DNA from: an uncultured delta proteobacterium
Lineage (GTDB): Bacteria > Desulfobacterota > RBG-13-43-22
Length of the DNA: 64,000 bases
Direction: 5' to 3'
Assembly (NCBI GenBank): GCA_963743305.1
Contig: CAVUPH010000026.1
Span: 1 to 64,000, forward strand
The position numbers were made by a program, and so were the translations under genes. The notes under the pieces are model-generated. The model made no database searches and had not been told where the DNA came from. It was given only the letters and a program-made list of their open reading frames with translations. Shown here one piece after another: positions 32,567 through 50,566 of this stretch (positions are counted from its first letter, which is position 1; the number at the start of each line of letters is the position of its first letter).

Positions 32567-32667
32567 CCATTGGGGCGAATTATTTTTGCCCAAATACCGG
32601 CCTGCCCGATGAAAAGAAAGCCTGACGGTGGAGGGAGCGACGTTTCAAAAAGCAAGGAGGGGAAACA

Positions 32668-33190: not shown

Positions 33191-33204
33191 AGGGATACAG
33201 ACCC

Positions 33205-33390: not shown

Positions 33391-33579
33391 CGGAGAGGCC
33401 CTAGGGGGGGCAATCTGATGAAGACGGACTATGGATCAATCAATCGTTATATTAGCGATTTTCTAAATTCCGATTGATCAACCTATCCCCCTCGATCTCA
33501 TCACAAAGATCGTAAAATTCAGAGTCGAAGAAAATTCCGTCGGGTTTCGGGGGACGGGGCGTGAAAGCAGGTTCGGCGA

Positions 33580-34230
33580 TTAGGCGGCGATCCGGCCTTG
33601 TTCGATCCGAATGACCCAGTCGGTGATCCGCTTGACCTGCTCCATATCGTGGGTGGCCATGATCACCAGGGTCCGAGCCTCCCTTCGGAGTTTCAGGATG
33701 ATCTCCTCGATCACCGCGGTATTATGGGGATCGATGGAGGCCGTGGGTTCATCCAGGAAGAGGACTTCCGGTTCCACCACCAAAGCCCGGGCCAGGCCCA
33801 GACGCTGGGTTTCCCCGCTGGAAAGGGTCAGGGCATTCTGATCCTTCTTATGGGCTATCCCCACATAGTCCAGGGCCTCCGAGACTTTATCTTTGATCAG
33901 ACGGGCTGTCCCGCCCCTGATCTTCAGCCCGAAGGCCACATTCTTAAAAACCGAGGTATTAAAAACCCCGACCTTGGGCAAGACCAGGGTGATTCGCCTT
34001 CTGAGTTCCATGTTGGGCGCTATCATCCGGCCCGCGGACTCATAGGTAACGGCTCCCTGGTCAGGACTTTCCAGGAGAGCGCAAATCCTCAGAAAAGTGG
34101 ACTTCCCTCCCCCATTCGGCCCGATCAGACCATAAATCCCGGCCTGTCCAAAGGAATAGGAACAATTTTTGAGAATAGGCTTCCCTTCATATTGCTTGGA
34201 TACGTTGGTTACTTCCAGGGCAAGGCTCAT
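33580..34230 (-). CDS. tupC: Tungstate ABC transporter ATPase
   Basis: GPNGGGKST, LSSGETQR and LDEPTAS; follows tupB. Confidence 0.85.
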   Translation of the reverse strand: MSLALEVTNVSKQYEGKPILKNCSYSFGQAGIYGLIGPNGGGKSTFLRICALLESPDQGAVTYESAGRMIAPNMELRRRITLVLPKVGVFNTSVFKNVAFGLKIRGGTARLIKDKVSEALDYVGIAHKKDQNALTLSSGETQRLGLARALVVEPEVLFLDEPTASIDPHNTAVIEEIILKLRREARTLVIMATHDMEQVKRITDWVIRIEQGRIAA

Positions 34231-34934
34231 CCTTTGCCCCCCAAATCCCCTCGTTTTTGAATCAACCGCAGCGCGAAATTGATCAGCAGGGAGATGGTCA
34301 GCAGAATAGTCCCCAGGGCCAAGGCCAGCTCAAAGTTCCCTTTGTCGGTTTCCAGGGCGATGGTGGTGGTCATGACCCGGGTATAGCCGGCGATATTCCC
34401 CCCCACCATCAGGATCGCGCCTACCTCGGCCATGACCCGTCCGAACCCGGCGATGATCCCGGCCATGATCCCGTAGCGGGCTTCCCTGACCACTAAGATC
34501 GCCTCCTGGGAGGGAGTGGCGCCCAGGGTCTTGGCCGCCTGTCGGATCATGGTCGGAACATTCACAATGGCCGAGTGGCAGAGGGCGCTGACGATGGGAA
34601 AGGCCAGAATGGTCTGGGCAATCACCATCGCCGAGGGAGTATAGAGCAACCCCAGGAACCCGAAAGGTCCTCTCCGGGATAAAAGTAAATAAACAAAAAG
34701 GCCCACCACCACCGGCGGCAGGCCCATAAAGGTATTCAGCAGGTTGATGATCAGACCCCGGCCGGGGAACCTTTTAAGCCCCAACCAGGCGGCCAGGGGA
34801 AGCCCCAGAAGGGTGGCGAGAATCAAGGCCGATCCGGAGACTTTGAGGGACATCCAGATGATCCTCAAGAGTTCCCGGTCCAGATCTCCGATCAGGATCA
34901 AGGCCGCTGAAAAACTATTAAGAATGGAGTCCAC
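34227..34934 (-). CDS. tupB: Tungstate ABC transporter permease
   Basis: MGLPPVVVGL, FGRVMAEVGA and TRVMTTTIALET. Confidence 0.9.
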   Translation of the reverse strand: MDSILNSFSAALILIGDLDRELLRIIWMSLKVSGSALILATLLGLPLAAWLGLKRFPGRGLIINLLNTFMGLPPVVVGLFVYLLLSRRGPFGFLGLLYTPSAMVIAQTILAFPIVSALCHSAIVNVPTMIRQAAKTLGATPSQEAILVVREARYGIMAGIIAGFGRVMAEVGAILMVGGNIAGYTRVMTTTIALETDKGNFELALALGTILLTISLLINFALRLIQKRGDLGGKG

Positions 34935-34993
34935 TCTTGCCTAGCACCCTGAACAGAAACCCGACATTGAAAAAAGGGGTATCCGAAAAATTC

Positions 34994-35833
34994 CTATTTC
35001 GTTTGACCCGCGTTGGGGAAGAAGAGCACGTTCCCGAACTTGTCCTTATAGGAGCCGATGGCCTGCTGTCCCTCTTTGGAGATCAACCAGTTGACAAATT
35101 CCATCGCTTCTTTAAACTTGGCGTGTTTGTATTTTTCCGGGTTGACCGCCATGACGCCATACTGATTGAAGAGCGCCGGGTCCCCCTCCAGGACGATGGT
35201 CATTTCCAGTTTATCTTTGTCCTTGGTGGCCAGCCAGGTGCCCCGGTCGGTCAGGGTATAGCCCTTCTTTTCATTGGCGATCCGCTGTGTCTTTTCCATC
35301 CCCTGTCCGACCTCCAGGTACCAGTCCTGGCCTTTGGGATCCAGTCCCACCTTTTTCCAGAGGGAAAGCTCCATGGTGTTGGTCCCGGATTTATCCCCCC
35401 GGGAGATAAACGGTCCTTTGCCGGCAGCAATTTTGGAGAAGGCCTCGGTGGCCTGCTTCAGCCCCTTTATTTTCAAGGGGTCATTGGCCGGCCCGATAAT
35501 GACAAAATCGTTGTACATGACGTCATGCCGGTTGACGAAATAGCCTTCGGCCGCCGCCTTGAGCTCCAATTCCTTGGCGTGAACCAGGACCACGTCGCAG
35601 TCGCCCCGTTTGCCGATTTCAATGGCCGCTCCGGTGCCCACGGCTACCACATCGACTTTGATCCCGGTCTTTTTCTCAAACAAGGGCAGCAGGTATTCGA
35701 ATAATCCGGAATTCTGGGTGCTGGTGGTCGAGGCGCAACGGATGCGCGTCTGGGCCTGGGCTGTACCATTCAGCAGCAGGGAGCCCGTCATAAAAACAGA
35801 TAAAAACAAAATCATCGCTTTTCTCATCTTCAA
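34994..35833 (-). CDS. tupA: Tungstate-binding periplasmic protein
   Basis: Signal peptide (AQA), STTSTQNSGL, VGTG, VMYNDF, SRGDKSGT and LTDRGT. Confidence 0.92.
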   Translation of the reverse strand: MKMRKAMILFLSVFMTGSLLLNGTAQAQTRIRCASTTSTQNSGLFEYLLPLFEKKTGIKVDVVAVGTGAAIEIGKRGDCDVVLVHAKELELKAAAEGYFVNRHDVMYNDFVIIGPANDPLKIKGLKQATEAFSKIAAGKGPFISRGDKSGTNTMELSLWKKVGLDPKGQDWYLEVGQGMEKTQRIANEKKGYTLTDRGTWLATKDKDKLEMTIVLEGDPALFNQYGVMAVNPEKYKHAKFKEAMEFVNWLISKEGQQAIGSYKDKFGNVLFFPNAGQTK

Positions 35834-35871
35834 CCCTCCTTAATGCTTAACCAGAAAATTCTCCGACAGAA

Positions 35872-35918
35872 GAAAATGCCAAGGCGCGGGGTGGGGTTTC
35901 CCGGCCTTGGCATTTTTT
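35872..35918. terminator. Hairpin between the porin gene and tupA
   Basis: aaaatgccaagg...ccttggcatttttt. Confidence 0.55.
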
Positions 35919-35943
35919 CAGGAAATAGTAAACAGAACCCGGG

Positions 35944-37380
35944 CTACCAGACCACTTCAAAGCGGGTCAAAATGGCCTGTTCATTATCCATTTTTTTACC
36001 GCTGACGGTAATGGGGTCATCGAACTTGGTATAATAATAATTGACCATGAAGCGCAGCATGTCGTTCGGGTACCAGGTCAGACCCAGGGTATAGCCGGAG
36101 GCTTTGGCGGTGTATTTCTTGGGATCGGCAAATCCCAGGTTCAGGATATCCGGGTCCATATCGATCCACTCATATCGGCCCAGGAGCTGGAAGGCGCCAC
36201 AGTATCCCGATTTCCCCAAAACAAAGGGTTTTTTGGGGGTGATTTGCCCCGGCAGCCCGTTCCGCCAGGGTTCCTCTTCACCGGTCAGAAACCATCCCAA
36301 TGAAGCGTAGCCGGCCGTGTTGTCAAAACTGGCCTTCTTCTTGTTGAAGGTCAAATCATTCAACTGCATTTTCATATATTCGGACTTCAGGGAAACCGGA
36401 CCGACCATCCAGGCCAGTTCACCTCCCAAGCGATTGCGGCTGCCGTCCTGGGTCACCGTATCATTAAACTGCAGAAAGGTCGTTCCGCTTTCGGTTTTGT
36501 ATTGAGACCGCCACCAGTCCGTTGCCGGGGTGGTGGTATGCTGGATCCCGGTGGTGAAGGCCCCGCCAATATGGAAGCCTTTTAAGAATTTGTTGTCCAT
36601 CTTGGAGAAGGGCGCCAGGGTAACCCGACCGGCCACGTCTTTCTGGTCGTCCACATCGCTGGAATTGAGCTTCCGGCCGTTGAAGACCCCCAACTGATAA
36701 TAGAGGAGATCTTTGCTGATATTGCCGTGAAGCATGACGCCCACATCCCGGGAAGGAGCAAAATTATCGGACAGGGAGCGTTCCACGAAATCGATCCAGT
36801 TGTCCGAACTCAATTCTTCCAGACTGAAAGGGACCTTGTATTGCCCGAACATCAATTGGGCATAAGGAATGTAATTGATATTCAAAAAGGCATCGTTGAG
36901 CTGGGCGTTCCCCTGGCCCATCTCGTATTCCACGCTGAAATTATAGTGTTTGTAGAAAGTACCGATGGCGGCCAGCCGGGCCCGCCGGATCAGAAAGGTG
37001 TCGTTATTGGGATTGTCGTTCAGAAATTGTCGGTAGTCGGCATGCAGCCGTCCGGATAGTCGAAGCTTATTTTCACCATCCGCCGACTCCATGGTAAAAC
37101 CCTTTTTGAAATCCACCTTGGCATTTCCCGCCGGGGCCTTTTCTTCCTTGACCTTCTTTTCCAGTGCCCGCAGTCGGGTCAATTCCGCCTCTTCGGCCTC
37201 GGCCTGCTTCTTCATTTCCTGGTACTTTTCCGGGGTAACCATCTTGCTGTTCAGCAGAATTTCCAGGATCTGTTCATTGAGCGATTTGGCCTGGACCCCT
37301 TGGGGCAGGGCCCATATAAAAATTCCGGTCAGTAAGATGAATCCAATAGACCTGCCAAAGGTTCGCACGTTCCCCTTCAT
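35944..37380 (-). CDS. OprO/OprP-family anion-selective porin
   Basis: Signal peptide, coiled coil, IRRARL, GQYKVPFSLEEL, ERS, RDVG, WFLTGE and terminal W. Confidence 0.88.
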   Translation of the reverse strand: MKGNVRTFGRSIGFILLTGIFIWALPQGVQAKSLNEQILEILLNSKMVTPEKYQEMKKQAEAEEAELTRLRALEKKVKEEKAPAGNAKVDFKKGFTMESADGENKLRLSGRLHADYRQFLNDNPNNDTFLIRRARLAAIGTFYKHYNFSVEYEMGQGNAQLNDAFLNINYIPYAQLMFGQYKVPFSLEELSSDNWIDFVERSLSDNFAPSRDVGVMLHGNISKDLLYYQLGVFNGRKLNSSDVDDQKDVAGRVTLAPFSKMDNKFLKGFHIGGAFTTGIQHTTTPATDWWRSQYKTESGTTFLQFNDTVTQDGSRNRLGGELAWMVGPVSLKSEYMKMQLNDLTFNKKKASFDNTAGYASLGWFLTGEEEPWRNGLPGQITPKKPFVLGKSGYCGAFQLLGRYEWIDMDPDILNLGFADPKKYTAKASGYTLGLTWYPNDMLRFMVNYYYTKFDDPITVSGKKMDNEQAILTRFEVVW

Positions 37381-37415
37381 ATCTCCCTCCTTCATTTTGT
37401 AATTTCTCTGCCATA

Positions 37416-37442
37416 TATGTCAACAAAGGCATATCTGTCAAG
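37416..37442 (-). promoter_or_regulatory. Promoter -35 (TTGACA) with adjacent operator TATGTC-N6-GGCATA for porin-tupABC
   Basis: tatgtcaacaaaggcatatctgtcaag is 23/27 identical to 48302-48328. Confidence 0.75.
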
Positions 37443-37601
37443 TTATTTTTCGATTTCCAGAAATATGAGAAGGACGGATTTTGGGGAGTCGTTGGGGGGA
37501 AGAGGAATAACAACGTCGGATGAAGAAATCCGACCAAAGAAATTATAGAATCAAGGGGATAACCACGGGGAAAAAATTATCAGCACAATGGATGCAAGCA
37601 C

Positions 37602-38106
37602 CTAATCGGGCCGGCCCCGAGGTCCCGCGGCACCCCGGTACAGACCCTCCCCATACCGGTCTTTTCCAAAATCGCCGATGATCTGCTGTCCGCGATCCGA
37701 GGCTAAAAAATTCAGGAACTGTGCCCCCAGCTCCGCCCCGGGGGTGGCCGCGGAAGGCTGGACTAGACCATGGTAGGTATTAACCAGGAAGGGATCTCCT
37801 CGGAAGAGAACCCGTAATTGAGGTAAGCTGCTTTTCTCCATCACCCAGGTGCTGCTGTCGGTGCAGGAGACGCAACGACTCACCGGAACCGGCCTTAATC
37901 CAGCAAAGGGAGGCCCCCGCCTCTTTGGCAAAGGCCTCCCCCAGGACTTTCAGCAACCCTAATTCACCGGGGCTTCCGGTGGCTACCGAAAATGTACGCT
38001 TCCCTGCTCCAAATTCCCCGGTGCAGGCCGCTTGGGCTGATGGTTGAGGCCAGGCGGTAGCCAGTACCAGAGATACCCATAGAGTTATACCGCCGGCTCT
38101 ACGCAT
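37602..38106 (-). pseudogene. TupA-like binding protein with a large internal deletion
   Basis: N-terminal ATGSPGELGLL..KAGSGESL is joined out of frame to TDSSTW..LFRGDPFLVNTY; the SRGD segment is absent. Confidence 0.75.
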
Positions 38107-38115
38107 TTCCCTTGA

Positions 38116-38895
38116 TTACTTGCCCTTGATTACCGAGGGTATGGCCTCGGGATAAAACAAGTTGGTCCCATGCTTCTTATAGCCGGCAATCAGCTTTTGC
38201 CCTTCCAGGGAAGTGACGAAGGTGATAAATTCCATGGCCGCCAGATAATTGGCCTGGGGGAACTTATCCGGACAAACCGCCATGACGCTATAGAAATTCA
38301 GCAGCAAGGGGTCTCCCTTGAAAAGGATCTTCAAATCCAGCTTGGGTTCATATTTCAAGAAAGTCCCTAGATCGGTCAAGGTATAGGCCCCCTGACGATC
38401 CGCCGCGATCAGGGTATCGGCCATATTGGCCCCGGCCTCCTGGTACCAGCTCTTGCCTTTCGGAGTCAGCCCGGCATCGTCCCAGAGGTCCAATTCCCGG
38501 ATGTTGGTCCCCGAATCATCCCCTCGAGAGACAAACAGGCTGCCTTTCTCCGCGATCTCTTCCAAGGCTTCGATGACGGTTTGGGCCTTTTTCACCTTGG
38601 CCGGATCCTTGGCCGGGCCAACAATGGCAAATTCGTTGTACATCACCTCCCGGCGATTTACCCCATACCCTTCAGCAATGAATTTTTCTTCACGAAAGGG
38701 GTCATGGACAAAAAGCACATCGGCTTCTCCCTTTTTGGCCAACCGGATGGCCTTGCCCGTACCCACGGCAATAACCTCCACCTTGACCTGGTATTTCGAA
38801 AATTTCTCATAGGCCGGAATCAAGATGTCAAAAAGGCCTGAATTCTGGGTGCTGGTGGTTGAGGCAACGATCAGCTTGTTTTTTGCTTTAGCCAT
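38116..38895 (-). CDS. TupA paralog lacking a signal peptide
   Basis: MAKAKNKLIVASTTSTQNSGL, VGTG and SRGDDSGT; RBS aaggag just upstream, with AT-rich non-coding DNA before it. Confidence 0.85.
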   Translation of the reverse strand: MAKAKNKLIVASTTSTQNSGLFDILIPAYEKFSKYQVKVEVIAVGTGKAIRLAKKGEADVLFVHDPFREEKFIAEGYGVNRREVMYNEFAIVGPAKDPAKVKKAQTVIEALEEIAEKGSLFVSRGDDSGTNIRELDLWDDAGLTPKGKSWYQEAGANMADTLIAADRQGAYTLTDLGTFLKYEPKLDLKILFKGDPLLLNFYSVMAVCPDKFPQANYLAAMEFITFVTSLEGQKLIAGYKKHGTNLFYPEAIPSVIKGK

Positions 38896-38981
38896 AAGGG
38901 TCTCCTTTTTTGCAGGGTAGTTAAAATATTTATTCTATTAAATTAATACTTTAACCTGGAATGTCAATGGCCTTCCCGTTG

Positions 38982-39905
38982 TTATTTCCCCCCCGGATCA
39001 TCCCCGTGCTGTTTCTTGATAAAATTGTGGTGGGTGGCCGTACCTTCTTTTCGGGCCTGCCCGACGGTCAGGAACTTACCCACCAGGAGCATATGCATTT
39101 CCGGGGGCAGGTTCTGATAATCGATCTCTTTCAAAAACAGGCCGACCGTACTCCGCAGGACTTTTTCTTTTTCCCGGTCTCCGGCGTAAAGCACCACCGC
39201 CACCGGGGTGTTTTTGGAATAATGTTTTTTAAGCTGATCAAACAGCTTGGGATAGTCCAGCTTCATGGTATAAAAAACCATACTGGTTTTATGGGTCATC
39301 AGTTCCCTGTTTCTATCCCGCCGGCCCGGCCAGTCGGTCATGGTTAAAATAACCGAGCTGGTGTCCCAACCATAGGGCGGGCTCATCTTGACCGCGGCGC
39401 TGGAGGCCTGAAAGGCCCCGATCCCGGGGATGATTTCAGAGGGGAAATCCTTGGGCAGCATCTCCAGATAAAAGGTGGTTCCATACATCATGGGGTCCCC
39501 CCACTGGAGGGCCGCCACTTTTTTTCCCTGGGCCACCGCTTCTTTGATCTTGCCGATCATCGACTTTCGGGCTTCGGCGTTCCGGATGGCCTTGGCCCTG
39601 ACTTCGGGGTCTTTCAAGGTCTGCGGATCAATTCCATAATACACCCGGGCGACATGTCCCAGGTACCAGACCGGTTTGTCGCCGATCCACTGTTTCCAAG
39701 CCTCCAGATCCGACTGGTCTTCCAGGATGAAGATATCGGCCTGCTTAACCGTCTCGAGCCCCCGGAGGGTGATCAGGTCCGGGCTGCTGCCCATGCCGAC
39801 GATATAGAATTTTCCTTCGCCGGCCAGCAGAGAGCCGGGAAGAGCCAGCAACAATACCAGCAGGACGCCACTCAGTAACTTTATTAGACGCTCTTCTTTA
39901 AACAT
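38982..39905 (-). CDS. Tetrapyrrole (CobM/CbiF-like) methyltransferase-fold protein with an N-terminal signal peptide
   Basis: LLSGVLLVLLLALPGSLLA precedes FYIVGMGSSPDLITLRG, GDPMMYG, IPGIGAF and TPVAVV. Confidence 0.82.
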   Translation of the reverse strand: MFKEERLIKLLSGVLLVLLLALPGSLLAGEGKFYIVGMGSSPDLITLRGLETVKQADIFILEDQSDLEAWKQWIGDKPVWYLGHVARVYYGIDPQTLKDPEVRAKAIRNAEARKSMIGKIKEAVAQGKKVAALQWGDPMMYGTTFYLEMLPKDFPSEIIPGIGAFQASSAAVKMSPPYGWDTSSVILTMTDWPGRRDRNRELMTHKTSMVFYTMKLDYPKLFDQLKKHYSKNTPVAVVLYAGDREKEKVLRSTVGLFLKEIDYQNLPPEMHMLLVGKFLTVGQARKEGTATHHNFIKKQHGDDPGGK

Positions 39906-39924
39906 ATATCCTTTCCTTTCCAAT

Positions 39925-40698
39925 TTAATTTAATCGGTACACCACCGGGATCGTGATCTGGGCTTCCACGGGGGGACGTGGAAAAGGGGCGCTTTCCATT
40001 AAAGACTCCAGAGCTTTCTGATCCAGGAGTTCATAACCGGAACCCCTGGCCACCCGGGGATCTTTTATCAAGCCATTGGTCGTGATGATAAACGAGAGGA
40101 CGACTTTCCCCTCCCAGCCCAGGCGCCGCGCTATTGCCGGATAGTTGACATTTTTCAGAATCTTGTCCCGAATGTAGGCGAATTGTTCAGCCAGATAACG
40201 GTTTTTGGCCTTCTCGGCGGCACCGCTTTCTAAGTTGGATCCTCCACCACTTCCGCCTTTTCCAATGACCGGTCCGCTCCCGGAAATCCCGGATATACCC
40301 GTTCCACCGGCCTGCCCGTCTGGTTTTCCCGACCCTCCCGGCACATTCGGGACACCCGGCTCTTCCACGGGTACGCTCAAATCCGAAGTGGAATGAATCC
40401 AGGTGGGGGAGGTTCCCGGGACTTTCGGTGCTGCCGGAGGGGGAGGGAGTTTGACCTCTTCCCGGGGAACCGGGGCGGGAACGGCCTGGGATAGTTTTTT
40501 TGATGCCGGCTGGAATGATTTTTTTAGCGGGGTCTCCCGGATTTCTTGAACCGGGGCCGGAGTTGGTTTTTCCAAGTCAAAATCGATGATCACCGGGTGA
40601 TGTTTTTTTATTTCCAGCGTGCTGAGACCCAACACCCCGGCAATCACCACCGCGTGAATGATCAAAGAATATTGGACCCCTCTGGCTTGCGGTTTCAC
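39925..40698 (-). CDS. tonB: Energy transducer TonB
   Basis: SLIIH transmembrane segment, Pro/Gly linker and YPAIARRLGWEGKV...SGYELLD. Confidence 0.92.
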   Translation of the reverse strand: MKPQARGVQYSLIIHAVVIAGVLGLSTLEIKKHHPVIIDFDLEKPTPAPVQEIRETPLKKSFQPASKKLSQAVPAPVPREEVKLPPPPAAPKVPGTSPTWIHSTSDLSVPVEEPGVPNVPGGSGKPDGQAGGTGISGISGSGPVIGKGGSGGGSNLESGAAEKAKNRYLAEQFAYIRDKILKNVNYPAIARRLGWEGKVVLSFIITTNGLIKDPRVARGSGYELLDQKALESLMESAPFPRPPVEAQITIPVVYRLN

Positions 40699-41075
40699 GG
40701 CCGTTCTTCGGTCTGGAGACTGACCCGTTTAAACTGAAGTCCTTTGACCAGATCCAGGACATCGACAAACCCCTGTAGGGCGATCTGCCGATCCGCCCGG
40801 ATCAGGATCGGGATATTCCTATTCTGCCCCTCCAGGCCCTGTCTCAACCCATCCAGGGCCACCGCTTTAGCGTTCAAGAACAGCCCCCCCTGACGGTCGA
40901 TCGCAATGGTCTGGGTCCGCAGCATCTCCCCCTGGCTTTTGACCACTTTGGGCAGATCGATAGGAATCATCCCGGTGGCGATAAAGGATGAAGTGGTCAA
41001 AACGATCGCCAGCAGAACCAGCATGACGTCCACCAGCGGGATTACATTGATATAATCAAACTCTTTTTCTTCCAT
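40695..41075 (-). CDS. exbD: Biopolymer transporter ExbD
   Basis: INVIPLVDVMLVLL and IRAD. Confidence 0.93.
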   Translation of the reverse strand: MEEKEFDYINVIPLVDVMLVLLAIVLTTSSFIATGMIPIDLPKVVKSQGEMLRTQTIAIDRQGGLFLNAKAVALDGLRQGLEGQNRNIPILIRADRQIALQGFVDVLDLVKGLQFKRVSLQTEERP

Positions 41076-41490
41076 TCAGAACGTCCCAGTCCAGGAGCAA
41101 CACCTTGACCTTGCGCAACAGGAAATTATACAAGGTCACCGAGGGAATGGCCACCAGCAATCCCACGGCCGTGGCCTTCAGGGCCAGGGCCAGGCCCACC
41201 ATGATCTTACCGGTATCCATGAACCCTTCCAACCCGATGGTATAAAAGGTCAGCATGATCCCTAAAACGGTCCCGAGCAGGCCGATATAGGGCGCGTTGC
41301 TTCCAATGGTGGCGATCAGGTAAAGTTTTCCGGTCAGTTCCTTTTCCAGACCGGGTTTGTCGGGGAAGTCTTCTAAGCGTATACGCCGATAAACCAGGTG
41401 GCGTTCCAGGGCTACGCTCAGGGCCACGATGCTCAGCAGAATCAGGAACCCGATGATCCCGTAATCGACCGCAATTTTCACCCATTCCAT
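41056..41490 (-). CDS. exbB: TonB system ExbB (short type)
   Basis: NAPYIGLLGTVLGIM and ALKATAVGLLVAIP. Confidence 0.93.
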   Translation of the reverse strand: MEWVKIAVDYGIIGFLILLSIVALSVALERHLVYRRIRLEDFPDKPGLEKELTGKLYLIATIGSNAPYIGLLGTVLGIMLTFYTIGLEGFMDTGKIMVGLALALKATAVGLLVAIPSVTLYNFLLRKVKVLLLDWDVLNGRKRV

Positions 41491-41496
41491 AATTCG

Positions 41497-43568
41497 CTAG
41501 AACTTTCCGGTAACACCTGCCCAGAAAGCCCGTCCAGGACCGGGAAACCCGAATTCCGGCTCGTAGTTGATGTCAAAAATATTGTTCACCGCCACGTACA
41601 CCTCGAACCATTTCAGGATCGGCTGGGTGACCTTGAAGTTGGTCAGGAAATAGTCCCCGGTTTTCAGCGTGGGCACGGTCTTATTCTGGGGTGTGGGAAG
41701 CTGGGAATAGGCCTCGCCCACATACAATCCGATCAGGTCCAGCTTGGTTTTAACCTGAGGGATGACATATTGTACCCCGAGGTCCAACTTGTGCTGGGGG
41801 GAGAAGGTTACGTCGTCGGTGACCCGTCCGTCACTTTCATTCTTAGAATCGATATAGGCGTAATCACCCCGCAGGAGTCAGACCGTCCAACGGATATACG
41901 GCACCGCCCACTTCGATACCCATCCGCTTCACGTTCCCGTAGTTTTGATAGTTGCCGAGAATGCCAGGGGCATCGCGGGAGATCAGGTCGGTGACGTCAT
42001 GATAGAATAAGGCGAACTCCAATTGGCCCACCTTGCCCAGGGCCTGATCCACACCCACCGTATAGTTGATGCTTTTTTCCGAGGCCAGGTCGGTATTGCC
42101 GCCTTTGCTGGAGTAAAGCTGTTGCAGGGTCGGGAAGCGGGATTTACGGGCGATGCGAACCGAAGAGTTTGGTCCCGTCGGCCACCTGGTAATTCAACCC
42201 GATCATGGGATTGAATTCGCTGGTGTTGGGTTGGGGGTTGGAGATCTGGCGCACGAAGTTACCCGTTTTGGAGTCCGTGACGTTCTTCTGGGCCTGAGTC
42301 ACGTCGAACCAGTCGTAGCTGACTCCGCCCACCAGAGATAGATTTTTTACCAGGGTGAATTCGTCTTCCAGACCCCAGGATCCGGTGTAAGACTTGGACT
42401 CCGCAAAGGGCAGATAGGCATCGTCCCGCTCCTGGTGGTTGTCCTCCTTGTAATGCAAGGACATTCGCAGGTTGTTCCATTTCACCGGCTGGTAATCGAC
42501 AAAATAGGAGCCGCCCAGTGATATAATCCTCATAGCGGCTGACGGCGATCTGTTTGGTCAGGGCCGAATCGGCATAAGAAACGTAATCGTCGTTATGATG
42601 GTGATAAAAGAGCTTGGCCTTCATATTCCACTGGTCGTTCAACCGGTGCCTCCCGTCCAGGTCGACCCCCCAATCCTCATAATTCTGGATCCGGACGTTG
42701 GCCGTGGAAAACGCCGGACGGTTGGTAAACACCGGTTGCTATCAGGTGGAGGCCGGCGACCCTTTGTCTCGGTTCAGGTAGTGGAAATTGGCGAAAAATT
42801 CGAATCCTTTATGGGGGTCGCTCCGATTTTGGCCCAGAAGTTTTTGCTGGTTATGTCGGAATTGTCCCGTTTTCCCCCGTCTTCAAAGACGACGGTGCTT
42901 TTCCCCGCCCGGGCTGCGGGTCAGAGTCCCTTTTCTGGGCTTATAATCGTCCGAGAGATTCCAACCGTCCGACTTCAGGTAGCTGGCACTCAGCCACCAG
43001 TTCCAGATACCGGTCTTCATGCCGTGGGTGGCCGAGAGGCGGTAGGTGTTGTTTTCGCTGAATTCCATGGTGGCGCTGGTGAACGGTTTTTCCGAGGGTT
43101 GCCGGGTGATGATGTTGATCACCCCGGCCAGGGCATTGGCCCCGTACAGGACCGAGGCGCCGCCCTTGATGATCTCGATGCGGGCTACGTTGTCGGTGGG
43201 AATCTGGTTTAGGTCCAGTTTCCCGACATTGGTTTCGTAGTAGGGGACCCCGTCCATCAGGATCAGCGCCTCGGATTGATCGAACCCTCGAATCGAGATA
43301 TTGGGTTCGTTCTTTCGACCGGTGGTCACCGGATCCCCGGCGCATAGCTTAGGGCCTCGGCTACGGTTTTGCTGTTGGTCGCCGGGATGTCTTCGGCGGT
43401 GATCTCGGCGATCACCGTCGTCTCCCGGACCTTGTCCCCCGGCACCACGATCTCACCCAGGGTGTAGGTCTCGAATTCCTTGGGCATCTTTCCCTCGGCC
43501 CAGACCAGACCGGTCCCCCAAAAGAAGAACAGCGTTAACAGCAAACCCATCTTTTCTCTCTTCCTCAT
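41497..43568 (-). CDS. TonB-dependent receptor, multiple frameshifts
   Basis: Signal peptide, TonB-box-like LGEIVV, plug ISIRG..DGVP..RIEIIKGGASVLYGANALAGVINII and C-terminal NNIFD..PGPGR..GKF. Confidence 0.9.
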
Positions 43569-43574
43569 TTTCTC

Positions 43575-44901
43575 CTCCTCATTTTTGGTATTGGCTCTTT
43601 TCAATTTTCGCGACCAGAAAAAATAAAACGGCAACCCCGATAAGGCGATGACCAGCCCCAACAACGAGGTCTGGGGCTTCTCCCAGGAAATCTGCCAGGC
43701 AATCCAGCCGTAGGTCCCGACAAACAGAAGCGGCGTCAGGGGATAACCCCAGGTCCGGTAAGGTCGAAATAGGGCCGGCCTCCTGGCCCGGAGAGTCAAG
43801 TGCGCCAGACCCGTCGCCATCGAGGACACCAGCATGATGAGCACCACATAGCTCAAAAGCTGGTCGAAGCTTCCCCAAAGGACCATACCGGCCGCCAGCA
43901 GTCCCGTGGGTCAAAATCGATCCGTAGGGCGTCCGGTGCCGGGGATGAAGTTTTTTCAAGAACGACCAAAATAGACCGTCCTCGGCCATGGCGTAAAAAA
44001 TCCGTGAGCAGGCCAGGAGGGTGGCATTGATCCCGGAGGCGATGGCCAGTACGATCACCAGGGAGATCGAGTCCGGCGTAAGGCCTGCTGAACAGGGTTT
44101 CCGCCGCCAGTTGACCTACGTTGACCACCCCCTGAAGTTGCGGGATCGGGACGGCATACAGGTAGGTAATGTTCATCAAGGCGTACAATACGGTTACGAT
44201 CAGGGTCCCCGAGAGCAGCGATCCGGGGAACGTTTTTCTCCGGGTCCTTGACTTCACTGCCCACATAGGCCGAGGCGAACCAACCGCTGTAGGTAAAAAT
44301 GACGGCGATCATCGGCGAGGCGAAGAGTTTGGTCCAGGATAGGGTCCCGCCCGGGTCCCCGGAAAAATGTTGCCAACTCCCCTTCCCCAATAGTAGCCCA
44401 CCCAAGACGAACCGACCGATGAGCAACAGGGCGCCCAGGGTAAGATATCCTGGGTGGTGCTGCCCCAGCGTATCCCGCGGTAATTGATCCAGGTAAACAA
44501 GGCGATCACCGCCAGGGCCGGTACCTTTTCCGAACCCGAGCCAATCCCCGGCAGAAACGGTTTCAGGTAACTGACCAGCGCCAAGGTCAAGGCGGCCATT
44601 GAACCCGGAATAATGATCCAAAAGTTGACCCAGCCAAGCAAAAAACCGGCCCAGGACCCGTAGGCCTCCTTGAGGAACTGATAGTCGCCGCCGGCTCGGG
44701 GAAACAAACCGGCCAGTTCGGCATAGGTCAGGGCCCCGCAAAGCGTGAGCAACCCCCCGATGATCGGGATGCCGACAACCAGAAGGGCTGGGGCAGCTCA
44801 CCGGCCAGAAATCCGCTGGTGGTGAAGATGCCGGCGCCCACCACGTTGCCCACCACCAGCAATATGGCATCCGACAGTCTAATGTTTCGATTGAGCGGCA
44901 A
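43575..44901 (-). CDS. APC-family amino acid/polyamine permease, frameshifted
   Basis: GNVVGAGIF, GALTYAELAGLFPRAGGDY, FTYSGW, SRIFYAMAEDG and RPYRTWGYP. Confidence 0.88.
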
Positions 44902-44916
44902 GGATCGGTTTCCCGG

Positions 44917-46702
44917 TTAATGGTGGCGATCCAAAGTCTTGGCCTCCAGGCAGGCCCCGATGTGGGAAATCATGCCCAGCCACTTTTCCTTTTCTTCCCA
45001 GGCGATGGACAGGGCCTTGTCCAGCGTGGTCTTCACCAGGCGCTCGCTGTCGGCAAAGCCCACCCGATAGGCAAAATAAACCGGGTGGCCGGCGGGTAAT
45101 AGCCGCCCAACAGATCCAGCAGGCCTTTTAAATCCTTCAACCCCATGAACAGGGCCAGGGTGTCCCCCTTCTCGACCGCCGCCTTAAGCAACGCCGGGTT
45201 GTCCTTAAGGCCCAGGAGGTGGACAGGAACAACCGCCCTCCCGGCAGGCCAGCTCCTTCCCGATGAGCGCGTTGGCGGCATTGAAGGCGCTGATCCCCGA
45301 GATGAACTCCTTTTCCTGATCTCCCAACCGGGCGGCGATCTGGCGCAGACTCCCATAGATAAAGGGATCCCCGTATTCCAGCAGGGCCACGTTCTTCCCC
45401 TGTTGCAGTTCAGCCTGAATCAGTTTTACCGCTTCTCGATCTTTTTTTCCAGCAGGGTCTCTTTTTCCTTCGGGGACAGCTTGCCCAGCTCCTTTCCATA
45501 AATGGGCTCCGGCATCAAATACTTGAAAGGATCAAACAGGACCGGGCGCCCTCCGATGTAAGCGGACAGACGTTTTTTCAGATCGTCGCTGCAGACGAAG
45601 ACATCAGCCCGGCCCAGGGCCGACAAGGCCTGCTGGGTCAACAGGTCCGGATCGGCGCAGCCCATACTGATCAAGATAGGCCTTGGGTTTCCGGAGCAGG
45701 TTGATGACCTCGATCCGGGAAACGGCCTTCACCCAGCGATCGGCCGACAGGTCGTCGGGGATCACCAGTTTAAACTTGCCGTCCGCCTGAATGGGCTTTC
45801 CTTCCTTGCGGTCGGCGATGATGATTCGCCGGCCCAGGGGATTGAGCAACAGCTCCCCCATGGAGATCAGGGACCGGTACCCGTCCGGTGCCGAAATGAC
45901 CACGGCCAAATTCAGGTCCTTGGTTACCCCGGCCCGGGTGAGCACCTCCATCAAGGGGACCCCTTCAAATCGGAGCAGACCGTGATAGCCTCTCCCCTCG
46001 CCCGCGACCTTGCCCGTCACCTCCACCCGGGGATAGGCCGATAAATCGGTCACGGTCAGCGGGGGTTTGCGGCTCCTGAACCACCGTCAGATCGGGGGCA
46101 AAAAGCTCCTTCATCCGTTTCACCGGCATTTCGAAATGCAGGTCGACCACCTCGATACTGGTCACGTTTTCCAGAGACCGCTCGGTATAGAAATCGTTGG
46201 CCACCACCAGCCTGGGTAAGCCCACCTTTCTTTTCAAGGGATCGTGCCAGACCCGGTAAACCTCCGCTGGGTGACAGGCAGCGCAGTCTCTGAGAGGCAT
46301 GACCGGCTCCGTCTGGAAGGCCACGACGATGTCCGCCGGGTTGCGATAAAACACCTCCCCCCAGACAAGGCCGCCTGTTTCTCCCTCCCGGTTACGGACC
46401 ACGATGGCCATATCCAGCGGTTTACTAAAGGCCGATTCCCCTTTTTGGACCACCGCGGTCTCCAGCAGCTTCCTTCAACGACACCCCCCGGTAGTTGAAA
46501 ACCCCGTGAAAAGTCTTGTCCCGGGTCAGTTCATTCAGGCGCACCGGAATCGATTGGAAGCGAGCCAGATCGGAGAGGCTGAATTGAAGCGGTTGTTTGA
46601 CGGCGCCAATGATATGCAGGCTTTCCAAGGTACCGGCCTCCACCCCGGGAAGCGATCAACAGGAGACTCAGACCAATAAACGACCCATTTCATCTTCTTC
46701 AT
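44917..46702 (-). CDS. Exported multidomain protein: molybdopterin-oxidoreductase-like domains, CxxCH and C-terminal tetrapyrrole methylase fold (frameshifted)
   Basis: Fragments read GLSLLLIAS..VEA; GAVKQPLQFSLSDL..YRGVSL; DCAACHP; FEGVPL..APDGY..LVIPDD..RWVKAV; MGCADPDLLT; GDPFIYG; ISGISAFNAA. Confidence 0.72.
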
Positions 46703-47481
46703 AAAACGATACTCCTTTTTTAAACGGATTTTCGCTGCGGAAAGTACCAGACCAGGGCCAGGATCAGGACAATGAACCCCCAGAAAATGAAGGTGCCGGC
46801 CGGGATCCTGTTTGATGACCACCTTCAACTCCTGACCCGGTTGGGCCTTTTTGGCCATATCCAGATGAAAGGTATATCCCTTCCAGGAGACCGGTTGCAT
46901 GATCTGGAGCTCCCGGGATTTCAGGCTGCCGGCGGCGTCAAACAGCAGAACCGCCCGGCATTGTTTGTAGCATCCCCCGGATAGGTTCCGGACCCGGATA
47001 GCGCTGACAATCTTGACTGATCAACCGGACCATCCCGACGCCCGGAAGCTGGATACCGGTTTTCGGTTTGTTCGGAACGACCCCGTTGAAGCCCACGACC
47101 AGGCTGATCCAGTGCCCGGAAAGGATGACCAGGAAACATAAATGGATCAAGGAAGGGCTGAGTCGGAACGGAAAACGTTCGGACACCGATCTGTCTCCTT
47201 AAAGGCCATAAATGGATCAGTCGTTTCAAAGCGCAGACCACGGTATTGACGCCTAGAAAGAACAGCAGGAGAATAAGACTTCCCAGCCACCAGAGTTGGT
47301 TGATCTGGGAACGACCCACCTGTTGAACCCACTCTTGAATCAACATCTGGTTCAGCGGATTGAAGAAAGTAAAATTAAATTTCAAATAATAGGAACCGAT
47401 CCCCAGGTTGGCAGAAATCAACAAGAGCAACCAGAAGTTGACTTTGACCTCGCCGCAGAAATCCCAAATCTTTTGAAACAT
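46700..47481 (-). CDS. ResB/CcsB-like cytochrome c biogenesis protein, frameshifted
   Basis: N-terminal transmembrane segments, NTVVC, SLIHLCFLVILSGH and terminal QDPG plus a transmembrane segment; follows the ccsA-like gene. Confidence 0.7.
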
Positions 47482-47485
47482 TCCG

Positions 47486-48246
47486 CTATCCCCCGATCCG
47501 TGGCGGCAGGTTGGTTTCGGTCAAGAACCCTAAGTAGCCGTAAAGCAGGATCATTGCCAGCCCGACCAGCGAGAAGCGGGCTTCGGTCCGCAGATTCCAG
47601 ACCGGAAGATAGCGAAGATGCAGCAAAGCCGCATAAAAACACCAGAGTGAAGCGGATTGCAGATGACGGGCGCTCCAGTGCAAAGGGGTGGCCCAGCCTA
47701 GAAAGGCCCAGTAGGCGCCCACCACCTGGGCGCCGCTGAAAAAGATAAACCCCCAGACCAGGAAGGAATGGAAAAGGCGGGCCGTTTCGTCCTGCCGCAA
47801 GTAGATCAGGCCCAACATGCTCCCCGCGATAAAACAGGCGTGGCTGATAACCTCCAGCATAAAGAACAGCCAAGAAAACAAGGTCTGGGTTTTCGGATTG
47901 GGCGGAACCACCCCCAGGGGAAAAAGAAAAGCCAATACCGAGAAGACCACCAGGGGAATCAGTAGCCCGCCGGCGAGAGAGGCTTTCCCGGGAATGAATC
48001 TGAACCCCAAAGCCAGCGCCGCCAGGCACCAGGGCAGGAAAAAACTTTCTTCAAAAAGGGCATAGGGGGACCAAATCCCGACAAGCCCTCCCCGGTTGAC
48101 CAGAAAGACGGTGTGTCCCAGGAAACCGAGCACCAGGCAAGACGAATGGGAATGTATCTCCGCCGGAATAGCCAGGCGACCATTGAAGCGGCATAAAAAC
48201 CCGTTACGAGCGGAAACCCGTTATTTATTGTTATCGAGATCATCAA
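47486..48246 (-). CDS. ccsA: CcsA/ResC-like cytochrome c assembly protein (variant WWD motif), one frameshift
   Basis: GAYWAFLGWATPLHWSARH...WCFYAALLHLR with multiple transmembrane segments. Confidence 0.78.
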
Positions 48247-48283
48247 TTAAAAATTTCCCGGAAACGGGATGAGCGAGAAGAAC

Positions 48284-48328
48284 TATGTCTTTTTCGACAT
48301 GTATGTCAAAACAAGCATATATGTCAAG
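48284..48328 (-). promoter_or_regulatory. Tandem operators ATGTC-N6-GACAT / TATGTC-N6-AGCATA with a TTGACA -35
   Basis: tatgtctttttcgacatgtatgtcaaaacaagcatatatgtcaag; shared with 37416-37442. Confidence 0.75.
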
Positions 48329-48361
48329 AATTTTTTCCGGGGGATCGCAAAAAAATCAATT

Positions 48362-50566
48362 TTACTGGAATCGAGTCTGAAGCGCCTTATAGTTCCAGCC
48401 GAAGGAGACCAGCAGCTCCTCCCCGGCCTTGAGGAGCAGTTCGAGGTATTTCTTTCGATCGTAGGGTTCCTGGCCGGTCAGGAAGGGGGCGGGGACCACC
48501 CGCTCCTCGGGCAGGGCCGCCCCGCTGTCCCGCAGGAGAAAGGACACCCGCTGGCCGGGATGGAGGGTCAACCCCTCGGCCTCCAGTTGCTGGAGGGTCA
48601 GGGCCGACTGGGTAGCCACCCGGTACTGGTCCAGGGGACGGCTGGATCGGCGGGTGATGATCAGTTCCGTGGGGTGGACCCGTCCGTCTTTCAGCAGTCC
48701 GGCGTATTCGCCCAGACGGGTCAGCATTTCCGGCACCTGCTTTTCCAATGTCTGCCGGTCCCCGGCCCGGGCCATCCAACCCAGGAGTTCCTCCTGCACC
48801 TCCCGGACGAAGCGGGGGACGTCCTTGCGGCAGCGGGCGATCCCCCGGGTCTTGAGGGTCCCGTTTTGAAAGGCCCCGAAGTAGCGGTTGGCCACCGGAC
48901 GGCGCGGCTGGACCTTGGAAGGCAGGAAGACGATCCAGTGATAAATTCCCTCCAGACTTATGGGAACCTGGGTCTTTCGCTCGATTTCCTCAAGCAAAAT
49001 GTTAATGTCCCCTTCCGTCAGCCGCTCCCCCTGGAGCCAGAGGGAATCGGTCAGCCCGTGGAGGACCTGGTAGCCCCGGATCTCGGCGCACTCCTTGGCG
49101 ATCAGCAGCTTGTCCCGGCCGAAGGCGGTGATGGCCTCGTGGGCCTCGATCCGACCGAAGCGGGCGTTCTTGTAGCCCAGGTAGCCGAAGCAGGTGACCA
49201 GCACCCACTTCAACCCTTTCTGCAGGGCCTGATAAACGGCCTTCCGCGGATGCCCCTCCTTGATCCGGGCCTTGAGCTCGGTCCGCAGCTTCAGGATCGG
49301 CTCCAAGGTTTCAGGCACCAGGCCTCGACGGCGCCGACAGATATTGTAGCCCGCCTCCGGGACCACCGGTTCTGGGCAGCAGGAACATAGCATGGTTTCG
49401 GGCGAGATATTGTGCCGGACCATGATGGTGGGATACATGGAGGCATAGTCGATCTCGGCCACCCGCTCTCGGAGTCCGATCGGCGGCTGGAAGACCAGCC
49501 CTCCCTTGTCCGCAACCAGAAGGTCCCAGGCGGTCTTGAAGTCCTCGGGCCGCCCCTTTTTCCAGGGGATCAGGATTCCTTTTTGCACCGCCCGGTCGAG
49601 CTGCATGGAGGTGATGGCCGTGCCCGGCGAGGTCCGGGCCAGGGTCTGAACCGGGATCTTGGTCAGTCGCGCCAGAAAGATGGTTCCCTCCAAGCCGCAC
49701 TCCCCCTGGGTGAAGAAAAAGGAATTGTTCCGGTCGATGTGGAAGCGCCCGAAGAGGGGGAAGGCCGCGCCCTGGTAGGCAATCTGCCCGTAAGTAAAGT
49801 AGGAGCGCCCTTCCCCCACCCGCCGGCGCGGCGGAGGGTGGGGGTCCCGGTCCAGGACCAAAGGGATTTTCTCCTTCTCGGACCAGTGCCAGAGACAGGG
49901 AAAGATGCGTCCGTCCCCGTGTTGGGAGAGGAGGCAGTCGGGATCCAGGCGGGCTACGAGTTGGTTGAATTCGGTCAGCAGTTCGGCGGGAGTCAGGCCG
50001 TCCAGTTCGAAGACCCGGTCCTCATAAGTCACCTGCAGGCTGTTGCCCCGCTCCAAAGGGATCTGGGGGTGTTTAGCCAGGGTGAGCTCAACAACTTTTA
50101 GAGAAGGAATCGGAGCATCCGGGTCCCAGGGGGAATGGAGGACCTTGAGACCCCGGAGCTGATTGCGCTCCCATTCGAACTCGCAGAAGGCCAGGGGGAA
50201 GAGGCCCCGCTCGTAGGCGTAGTATTGGGGAACGGCCAGGTCGCAGTTGTAAAAGGTGATCCCGCCGGCCCAGTCGGCCAGGCGCCGCTGGATCTCCGGG
50301 AGCTTCTGCAGGGCCCGGACCTCCAGCTCGAAAACCGGCATTGCTTTGCCGCTCCAGAACTCAGTCCGCCTGGTCCAGCCCGTGCGCCGCAGATACCGGC
50401 CAAGCCCTCTTTCCAGGGCGCTCAGGGCGGACCGGGTCCCCTGGGCGTAAAAGCGGTAGTCGAAATAATCGGTCAGGCAGAGCATCTCCCCGCCCGTTAA
50501 TCGAAACCAGAGGACCATCACGTCCTCGCGCACGTACAAGTCGAAAAGCCAGCCTTTGGCGATCAT
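48362..50566 (-). CDS. polB: Family B DNA polymerase, PolB2-like
   Basis: Motif A DYASMYP, motif B KWVLVTCFGYLG, motif C HGLTDSL (first Asp of DTDS replaced), NRYFG and KTRG; exonuclease motifs look eroded. Confidence 0.9.
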   Translation of the reverse strand: MIAKGWLFDLYVREDVMVLWFRLTGGEMLCLTDYFDYRFYAQGTRSALSALERGLGRYLRRTGWTRRTEFWSGKAMPVFELEVRALQKLPEIQRRLADWAGGITFYNCDLAVPQYYAYERGLFPLAFCEFEWERNQLRGLKVLHSPWDPDAPIPSLKVVELTLAKHPQIPLERGNSLQVTYEDRVFELDGLTPAELLTEFNQLVARLDPDCLLSQHGDGRIFPCLWHWSEKEKIPLVLDRDPHPPPRRRVGEGRSYFTYGQIAYQGAAFPLFGRFHIDRNNSFFFTQGECGLEGTIFLARLTKIPVQTLARTSPGTAITSMQLDRAVQKGILIPWKKGRPEDFKTAWDLLVADKGGLVFQPPIGLRERVAEIDYASMYPTIMVRHNISPETMLCSCCPEPVVPEAGYNICRRRRGLVPETLEPILKLRTELKARIKEGHPRKAVYQALQKGLKWVLVTCFGYLGYKNARFGRIEAHEAITAFGRDKLLIAKECAEIRGYQVLHGLTDSLWLQGERLTEGDINILLEEIERKTQVPISLEGIYHWIVFLPSKVQPRRPVANRYFGAFQNGTLKTRGIARCRKDVPRFVREVQEELLGWMARAGDRQTLEKQVPEMLTRLGEYAGLLKDGRVHPTELIITRRSSRPLDQYRVATQSALTLQQLEAEGLTLHPGQRVSFLLRDSGAALPEERVVPAPFLTGQEPYDRKKYLELLLKAGEELLVSFGWNYKALQTRFQ

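Follow-up and report, generated by a model that had tools for sequence, protein, structure and literature searches.

Anaerobes rely on tungsten (W) and molybdenum (Mo) enzymes for the metabolism of formate, CO2, aldehydes and nitrogen. The only accepted route of entry for these metals that we know of is uptake of molybdate or tungstate via a porin and an ATP-binding cassette (ABC) importer. The known TupABC and ModABC systems have no need of a TonB receptor, or of exported methylase-fold, PruR-like or haem proteins. TonB-dependent uptake of siderophores, haem, B12 and pseudopaline relies on a receptor with a dedicated ExbB-ExbD-TonB complex, periplasmic handling and an ABC importer, and catecholate "molybdophores" are known from Azotobacter. 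Here we describe a locus that joins these two schemes. It lies at 33580-48246, with all genes on the minus strand, in a stretch of 64,000 nucleotides (positions 1 to 64,000 of contig CAVUPH010000026.1, C26; hereafter the window) from an uncultured delta proteobacterium. The metagenome-assembled genome (MAG; GCA_963743305.1) is 4.9 Mb in 43 contigs, 90% complete and 5.7% contaminated.

The downstream half of the locus is an ordinary porin with TupA-TupB-TupC; in other phyla the corresponding importer is ModABC with a TOBE-domain ATPase. The upstream half encodes a TonB receptor with its own ExbB, ExbD and TonB, exported proteins with tetrapyrrole-methylase and PruR-like folds, a c-type haem motif, an APC permease and a CcsA/ResB-like pair. 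Unlike described metallophore systems, the locus lacks recognised metallophore biosynthesis genes, resembles solved receptors in the plug domain only, and has periplasmic components from families not known in any such system. The parts come from known superfamilies (TonB, Tup/Mod, class III methyltransferases, PruR/SUOX, CcsBA), and several fail the tests for the named families within them. Genes of the exported methylase-fold family are linked to TonB receptors, cytochromes c and Mo/W genes in several phyla. We rate the locus as TonB-dependent uptake that feeds an ABC importer, a known scheme with an unfamiliar periplasmic set. The reading that we favour, and to which we give about an even chance, is that a TonB-dependent accessory system takes up bound W or Mo, perhaps pterin-bound, and that the oxyanion is freed in the periplasm for Tup/Mod import.

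Our literature search found no paper connecting exported proteins of the TP_methylase or PruR-like kind to TonB receptors or to the uptake of Mo/W; its coverage ended short of supplementary datasets such as lists of PruR homologues, which might contain these proteins. The terms TonB, methyltransferase and molybdate have no occurrence in a 2026 review of periplasmic pterin signalling. The view of the initial annotation, made from the sequence before any search, that no described system has this combination agrees with this result.

Organization of the locus and its relatives

We refer to homologous loci as Lnnn, to their genomes as Gnnn and to the genome of the window as G000. TPM2 is the intact exported TP_methylase-fold protein, TPM1 the C-terminal TP_methylase-fold domain of an exported fusion protein, and c10 a family of stand-alone PruR-like proteins. 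Lengths are in amino acids (aa). The features, in gene order, are:

47489..48246, minus strand: divergent CcsA-like membrane protein, ~252 aa in intact homologues (PF01578 E 5.5e-10, 39.7 bits, match 47489-48220); frameshifted near the 5' end
46723..47481, minus strand: short ResB-like membrane protein, 252-297 aa in homologues (tblastn with the L005 protein); frameshifted
44920..46702, minus strand: exported fusion with signal peptide, two PruR-like (truncated SUOX-fold) domains, one CxxCH and C-terminal TPM1 (Oxidored_molyb and TP_methylase pieces 45036-46474); many frameshifts
46271..46285, minus strand: CxxCH haem-c attachment motif (CAACH) in an insertion of the first PruR-like domain (motif scan)
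43584..44901, minus strand: APC-superfamily permease, ~440 aa (Pfam AA_permease pieces 43329-44969); frameshifted
41497..43570, minus strand: TonB-dependent outer-membrane receptor (Plug E 2e-19 and beta-barrel pieces 41500-43452); frameshifted
41059..41490, minus strand: ExbB (MotA_ExbB E 1.5e-27)
40698..41075, minus strand: ExbD (Pfam ExbD E 2e-22)
39925..40698, minus strand: TonB (TonB_C E 1e-17)
38982..39905, minus strand: TPM2, exported class III (tetrapyrrole-methylase-fold) protein, 307 aa, intact (TP_methylase E 2.4e-34, 119.6 bits, protein with leader at 38985-39929)
38116..38895, minus strand: TupA-like tungstate-binding protein 1 (PBP_like_2 E 1e-38)
37605..38115, minus strand: remnant of a third TupA paralog with internal deletion and frameshift (partial match to the L006 paralog)
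35944..37395, minus strand: anion-selective porin, Porin_O_P family (Pfam E 7e-47)
34994..35833, minus strand: TupA-like tungstate-binding protein 2 (PBP_like_2 E 9e-46)
34227..34934, minus strand: TupB-like ABC permease (BPD_transp_1 E 2e-14)
33580..34230, minus strand: TupC-like ABC ATPase (ABC_tran E 1.5e-25)

Pfam bears out the genes and the order first proposed for the locus, with the ResB-like gene recognised through intact homologues only. The same order recurs in L005, a relative with 92% identity to the window. L103 belongs to a different genus of the family and holds the whole arrangement, including tup, with every gene intact; it encodes a 592-aa fusion, a 683-aa receptor (Plug and barrel) and three full TupA paralogs. 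The tup junction recurs in other assemblies (L005, L006 and L103), and thus the misassembly that the initial annotation had allowed for at this point was tested and rejected. Of the two TupA paralogs that had been placed after TPM2, the first stands (38116..38895). The second (37605-38115) proved to be an internally deleted remnant, which matches residues 5-85 and 201-278 of the intact 286-aa paralog of L006; the L103 copy is intact, with 287 aa.

A Plug domain and 22-strand barrel, together with ExbB, ExbD and TonB, identify the upstream genes as a TonB-dependent transport system, with the receptor intact in L103 and frameshifted in the window. Sequence matches of the receptor in the PDB cover the plug domain only (best BtuB, 83 bits, then CirA and haem receptors). 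The intact L103 homologue of the APC permease matches AA_permease_2 (E 1e-56), and no NCBIfam equivalog was reached. For the L005 orthologues of the two intact TupA proteins, tung_bind_TupA is the best or only NCBIfam match, with 227 bits (TupA1) and 254.8 bits (TupA2) against a cut-off of 400, so that in contrast to TupABC proper the copies of this locus fall under the equivalog threshold. Homologues of tupA and tupB in G000 are found only in this locus. A second Porin_O_P gene of G000, 84.5% identical to the window porin, adjoins ModA-like (SBP_bac_11) genes (C14:86596-94195), and G000 seems to hold a plain porin and Mod locus besides the TonB-linked Tup locus. A promoter scan returned 8 sites versus 7.9 expected, and 38 terminator-like sites were found versus 21.7 expected, none of them convincing between genes.

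The locus is flanked upstream by a family-B DNA polymerase gene (48365-50566, minus strand) and on the other side by a PEBP gene on the opposite strand (32012-32563). Beyond the polymerase gene lie genes for an N6/N4 DNA methylase (51666-52571, minus strand) and an Eco57I-type restriction-modification methylase (54191-55399, minus strand); this block is possibly a mobile or defence island at the edge of the locus. Long open reading frames (ORFs) cover 0.13-0.28 of window positions 24500-35000, where we found short ORFs only, versus a genome median of 0.73.

Exported methylase-fold and PruR-like proteins

TPM2 shares with CbiF/CobM and the other class III tetrapyrrole methyltransferases the Pfam family, the fold, and the GDP and PG(I/V) motifs. 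Its PF00590 score is well above the gathering threshold of 27.8 bits, and the closest solved relative is CbiF. A Foldseek search with the TPM2 model (pLDDT 75.8) retrieved 1cbf with E 1.7e-16, but with a global template-modelling (TM) score of just 0.33-0.47. Unlike CbiF, TPM2 is exported, has an insertion of ~40 residues and a shortened first glycine loop, never occurs in cob operons, and scores far under all equivalog cut-offs (for cobM_cbiF, TIGR01465, 80.4 bits for TPM2 and 69.8 bits for a fusion homologue versus 259.65). The true CbiF of G000 scores 332 bits and is part of a cob cluster on C30. In a tree, TPM2 forms its own clade (support 98/97), apart from the cob methylases of G000 and from TPM1 (99/99). 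Identification of TPM2 as a true CbiF paralog was rejected on the grounds of score, export and lack of a cob-operon context. Given the true CbiF on C30 and a canonical CcsA on C13 (190 bits), the copies in the locus are additional paralogs.

An alignment of 21 TPM2 sequences from several phyla has a mean column identity of 57% and 70 invariant columns, including the GDP and PG(I/V) motifs. All 21 members begin with a basic-hydrophobic Sec-type leader that ends in A-x-A directly before the first strand (GKFYIVGMG). We identified 684 relatives in databases at E<=1e-3, mostly of ~300 aa, which are called "precorrin-4 methylase" where the source names them; in the Protein Atlas they occur in unnamed TP_methylase clusters only. 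Among longer fused forms, one tandem-like protein of 595 aa was found, and the other 10 are true CbiF-CbiG fusions. S-adenosylmethionine (SAM) binding and methyl transfer by the TPM proteins are putative activities.

Related genes occur in a complete genome, G042. There, the gene of a TonB receptor that has an STN signalling domain precedes that of an exported TPM homologue of 274 aa (L101:7353-10561). At a second site (L102:6240-12480), two TP_methylase domains stand in tandem in a protein of 565 aa; an APC permease gene comes next, and multihaem cytochromes with 4 and 8 CxxCH are encoded 4.5-6.6 kb upstream.

The fusion protein is a single ORF of 582-635 aa in seven loci, as it is in L103. 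Each intact homologue has a Sec-type leader and two repeats that match Oxidored_molyb, and ends in TPM1, a TP_methylase domain whose first loop is of canonical length and retains the Asp. The CxxCH motif lies in the same insertion in three of the seven aligned intact homologues, and also in the window, L005 and L103; its presence in the same chain as TPM1 places a methylase fold in the periplasm. The initial annotation had called the repeats molybdopterin-oxidoreductase-like. The count of two domains stands, and a better label for them is given below. SUOX-family molybdoenzymes (sulfite oxidase, YedY/MsrP) have a Mo-coordinating Cys and twin-arginine export, and here we found no invariant Cys among nine c10 and seven fusion proteins and no twin-arginine motif in the leaders of six of the seven fusion homologues.

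In Acidobacteriota, the c10 protein is exported (165-204 aa, with leaders visible in the alignment) and adjoins TPM2. It is the same domain as repeat 2 of the fusion (hhalign, 98.8%). The AlphaFold model of c10 (pLDDT 82.5) has as its best match PruR (7kom; target TM 0.76, root-mean-square deviation 3.0), followed by 7rkb, 7kos and 7kp2 and then by sulfite oxidase, YedY and nitrate reductase. PruR is a small protein of the periplasm, exported by Sec, whose truncated SUOX fold is without the Mo-ligating Cys; it binds pterins other than the molybdenum cofactor (Moco) and signals by binding a periplasmic partner domain (PMC11194511). Proteins of the PruR type have a conserved Pro-Trp where that Cys would be. 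The domain found here is likewise a small Sec-exported truncated SUOX fold, and is probably better named PruR-like, a predicted binder of a pterin-type ligand. It differs from PruR of Agrobacterium and other Proteobacteria in sequence (12-18% identity), in architecture (one domain in c10, elsewhere a duplicate or part of a fusion with a methylase fold and haem motif), and in its neighbours, which are TonB receptors and Mod/Tup genes where PruR has a DcpA-type partner; pterin binding is predicted from the fold.

System II CcsBA (ResB/CcsA) shares with the upstream pair the Cytochrom_C_asm match, conserved His residues and an adjacent ResB-like partner. The CcsA-like protein, with 97% amino acid identity to the L005 gene, exceeds the PF01578 cut-off of 29.9 bits and falls short of the ccsB equivalog (45.5 versus 187.6 bits). 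Its Trp-rich loop (WWD) is degenerate and its His residues are invariant in six homologues. A ResB-like homologue (L010:2163-2954) has a weak Pfam ResB match under the cut-off (E 7e-4), and SPS..H and GH motifs are conserved in eight homologues. Thus, in contrast to CcsBA, the proteins of this locus have roughly half the length usual for ResB or have diverged strongly, and the pair is extra to a canonical CcsA. Dedicated haem-c maturation, which had been proposed for the pair, is unproven: the pair was found in only eight of the 80 loci counted below (10-kb flanks; five deltaproteobacterial, three spirochaetal) and is kept where the fusion protein is without CxxCH. It may serve haem or tetrapyrrole delivery rather than attachment to the fusion protein.

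Neighbours of TPM2 across phyla

A pattern scan over one genome per GTDB species yielded 123 TPM2 relatives, and the best 80 loci were kept for counts. ORFs were called and clustered, clusters were named by Pfam, and neighbours were counted within 6 kb of TPM2. The 80 loci come from Acidobacteriota (41), Smithella/Syntrophaceae-type deltaproteobacteria (13), Spirochaetota (8), Armatimonadota (6), Planctomycetota (6), Desulfatiglandales (3) and Myxococcota (2), with one record without group, and represent at least seven phylum-level groups overall.

Any Mo/W-related gene is present in 30 of the 80 loci, a Mod/Tup binding protein in 20, a TOBE-type ModC in 16 and a regulator with helix-turn-helix (HTH) and PBP_like domains in 11. 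Tungstate-responsive regulators of this HTH and PBP type were reportedly described in a study of TunR. A TonB receptor was found in 25 loci, any CxxCH protein (c-type cytochrome class) in 31, a hexahaem c7-type cytochrome in 14, a di-haem CCP/MauG-type protein in 5, a PruR-like domain in 17, an APC permease in 12, and a DUF1559 pseudopilin (Planctomycetota, Armatimonadota) in 9. FmdE is a further Pfam-confirmed Mo/W neighbour; XdhC, MobA-like, formate dehydrogenase and ModE-like neighbours are putative names given on reading the sequences.

Mo/W genes occur near TPM2 in six of the seven named phylum-level groups, in differing gene orders. TPM2 lies inside an operon ModA-TPM2-pseudopilin-x-ModB-ModC in Planctomycetota, and Acidobacteriota have receptor-c10-TPM2 with an adjacent regulator. 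In two spirochaetal loci (L055, L063), tupCBA, a TonB receptor, a PruR-like protein, a resB-like gene and TPM2 occur together, with the ccsA-like gene called as an ORF in L063 and seen as a 35% tblastn match in L055. By our estimate, which takes one to a few Mo/W loci per genome of 4-7 Mb, such a locus would fall in a random 13-kb neighbourhood with a chance of ~1%, versus the 25-38% observed, in kin that are not independent. The Mo/W link is enriched and not universal. Thus the initial expectation that the methylase-fold genes would recur with TonB receptors and mod/tup genes across genera is borne out across phyla, with cytochromes c as further companions; for ccsA/resB the co-occurrence is confined to the eight loci given above.

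The best or only modA adjoins TPM2 in three of five other genomes checked (G001-G005): G002 and G005 have their sole SBP_bac_11 (modA) genes there, and G003 its best-scoring one, in genomes of 4-7 Mb. G004 has a tupA beside TPM2 instead of a modA. In G001, the ~6-Mb Bryobacterales genome of L017, we observed a regulator-c10-receptor-TPM2-cytochrome c7 cluster and no strong ModA (best SBP_bac_11 match 29 bits).

Two further exported enzymes recur. A class I methyltransferase (Methyltransf_11) with clear signal peptides adjoins TPM2, a hexahaem cytochrome c7 and an APC permease in five loci (L016:13031-13741 and 13859-14581; L033:10970-12037; also L027, L032 and L077). The L033 version is a fusion with three CxxCH motifs, evidence that a second methyltransferase fold resides in the periplasm. 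A calcineurin-like metallophosphoesterase, Pfam-confirmed in L063, occurs in four loci, beside TPM2 and tup/mod in three (L063:10854-11939; L055:11031-12098; L009:5534-6622) and also in L041, and could cleave a nucleotide-linked or phosphorylated ligand.

Eight queries from a cob cluster identified no cob genes in the 80 loci (six had no match, the CbiF query retrieved TPM genes only, and one retrieved ABC ATPases). The initial annotation had noted the lack of cob context in the window, and this now holds across the family, with the true CbiF of G000 encoded elsewhere. Rfam models gave nothing in the window, and in seven loci only tRNA and a group II intron, with no cobalamin or Moco riboswitch. 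The intron domain (RF02001, 66 bits) is downstream of a Smithella-type locus (L010:16944-17115).

Proposed role and alternatives

We infer that the cargo is bound metal and its ligand pterin-like, and that uptake could proceed as follows. The TonB receptor, powered by its own ExbB-ExbD-TonB, would admit W (Mo in other phyla) on an organic ligand whose bulk or tight binding bars the porin/TupA route. The PruR-like domains, of a pterin-binding type, would hold the ligand in the periplasm, where TPM1 and TPM2 would act on it with c-type haem as redox partner. TupA would then catch the freed oxyanion for import by TupBC, and the APC permease may transport what is left of the ligand or else a small-molecule co-substrate. 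The PruR fold match favours a ligand of the pterin type. Human conversion of Moco to urothione, for which a methyltransferase is required (PMC9607355), offers a chemical precedent for methylation as a way to demetallate or degrade such a ligand, and the exported Methyltransf_11 proteins hint at methyl transfer beyond the cytoplasm. G000 encodes MoaC and MoeA and thus makes its own cofactor, so the locus most likely supplies metal. Among the cargoes first suggested, a pterin cofactor therefore gains support from the PruR-like fold; metal import, periplasmic chemistry and the part given to the APC permease keep the conditional form used here.

Several observations weigh against this reading. A Mo/W gene is absent within 6 kb in 50 of the 80 loci, and a majority without tup/mod was what the initial annotation had named as a ground for refutation. 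None of the counted classes was found at 19 loci, several of them on short contigs. TPM2 is patchy among kin (8 of 41 genomes searched, including G000), and the BtuB plug match would equally suit a tetrapyrrole cargo. Five genes are broken in this genome, where the system would be defunct should the breaks prove real. We know of no supply of SAM in the periplasm, which makes methyl transfer there doubtful. In the alignment, the canonical GxGPGD loop is one residue shorter in TPM2 and is without its Asp, and the pocket of PruR is reported to be of insufficient length for an entire Moco (PMC11194511). Because of these last three points, the chemistry is put forward conditionally throughout. The ligand and its binding are likewise predictions from genes and modelled folds.

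The broken genes bear on the view that the upstream half, from the ccsA-like gene to the receptor, consists of pseudogenes in decay that happen to lie next to a functional tup operon, with no joint function in this genome. The comparison with L005 revealed 38 indels of a length not divisible by three, all within 41878-48343 and a few of them intergenic, which break the ccsA-like, resB-like, fusion, APC and receptor genes in this assembly; exbB, exbD, mature TPM2, tupA1, porin, tupA2, tupB and tupC contain none. Long ORFs cover 0.24 of the 42-49 kb interval, near the 1st percentile of the genome (0.21), and the genome median given above indicates that the frameshifts are not genome-wide. Against decay, amino acid replacements account for 29-47% of the changed codons of the broken genes, a range that overlaps the 12-50% of their intact neighbours, and nucleotide identity to L005 is not reduced in the broken part (92.3% versus 93.1%), so the broken genes were evidently under selection for most of the divergence. 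L005 itself has two such breaks and L103 none, and the arrangement is kept across genera and phyla. We read the breaks as a probable local assembly error or very recent decay, and consider a non-functional block very unlikely.

The remaining alternatives concern the cargo. A tetrapyrrole (haem or corrinoid) uptake or handling system might simply lie beside tup, with a receptor that imports the tetrapyrrole, exported CbiF-like proteins that bind or carry it and CcsA/ResB-like proteins that traffic haem. The relationship of TPM2 to CbiF, the BtuB, CirA and haem-receptor matches, the ccsA/resB-like pair beside TPM genes in a tenth of the loci and the rank of cytochromes c as the commonest neighbour class are all consistent with this. 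However, those receptor matches are limited to the plug; cob genes and cobalamin riboswitches were lacking in the loci searched for each; the ABC systems present are of the Mod/Tup type, with no BtuCDF- or Hmu-type importer among the recurrent clusters; and TPM2 lies inside modABC operons and beside the sole modA genes of two genomes. We therefore regard a tetrapyrrole cargo as unlikely. Inorganic W or Mo in forms other than the oxyanion (thiometalates, reduced or mineral-bound metal) could instead be converted in sulfidic anoxia, with no organic ligand, if haem and methylase-fold proteins stripped sulfur or oxidised the metal until TupA/ModA could bind it. Most carriers are MAGs with record titles that hint at anoxic surroundings (such as groundwater, fen and sediment), multihaem c7-type cytochromes and di-haem peroxidase-like proteins adjoin TPM2, and Mo acquisition by anaerobes in sulfidic habitats has been called an open paradox (PMC11484787). 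Yet small inorganic anions should make a TonB receptor unnecessary, the PruR-like fold points to an organic pterin-type ligand, and transcripts of methanogen transport genes were similar on thiomolybdate and molybdate (same report), which leaves inorganic conversion quite improbable. A pterin-sensing accessory, in which PruR-like domains report periplasmic pterin and only modulate the receptor or transporter, with TPM proteins as non-catalytic partners, is in line with the fold match and with signalling by PruR through a periplasmic partner domain (PMC11194511). No DcpA-type partner or sensor kinase was recognised among the recurrent neighbour clusters of the 80 loci, and the fusion of PruR-like domains to a methylase fold and haem motif looks enzymatic; a sensing role seems to us remote.

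Within the favoured reading of bound W/Mo uptake, a narrower version is that the metal is scavenged from pterin-dithiolene cofactors, or from similar complexes of pterins, that other cells have released; this we think rather doubtful. The TonB receptor would import the cofactor and the PruR-like domains would hold its pterin, while exported methyltransferase-fold enzymes would alkylate the dithiolene sulfurs with a methyl donor supplied by the APC permease; haem c would set the redox state, and the released oxyanion would enter via Tup/Mod. This version is hinted at by the exported Methyltransf_11 proteins (a sign that methyl transfer may occur outside the cytoplasm), by the metallophosphoesterase and by a human precedent. 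Human Moco breakdown to urothione needs thiopurine methyltransferase (PMC9607355); the likeness is the use of methyl transfer in cofactor breakdown and is one of analogy, since the human enzyme is cytosolic, eukaryotic and of an unrelated methyltransferase fold. That the locus represents a categorically new cofactor-salvage or periplasmic-methylation pathway is improbable in our judgement. If the salvage version were true, it would be without precedent both as a SAM-type methyl-transfer pathway in the periplasm and as a route of cofactor salvage for W/Mo.

TPM2 represents a large and so far unnamed family of exported proteins with a class III methyltransferase fold. The precorrin-4 methylase label that automated annotation wrongly gives to this family will inflate predictions of cobalamin biosynthesis in MAGs. 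How organisms obtain W or Mo where these metals are sulfidised or organically bound is a described paradox (PMC11484787). The conserved TonB module with pterin-binder-like, methylase-fold and haem proteins and Tup/Mod, which occurs in Smithella-type syntrophs, Acidobacteriota, Planctomycetota, Armatimonadota and Spirochaetota, provides concrete, testable genes for this question of metal acquisition.

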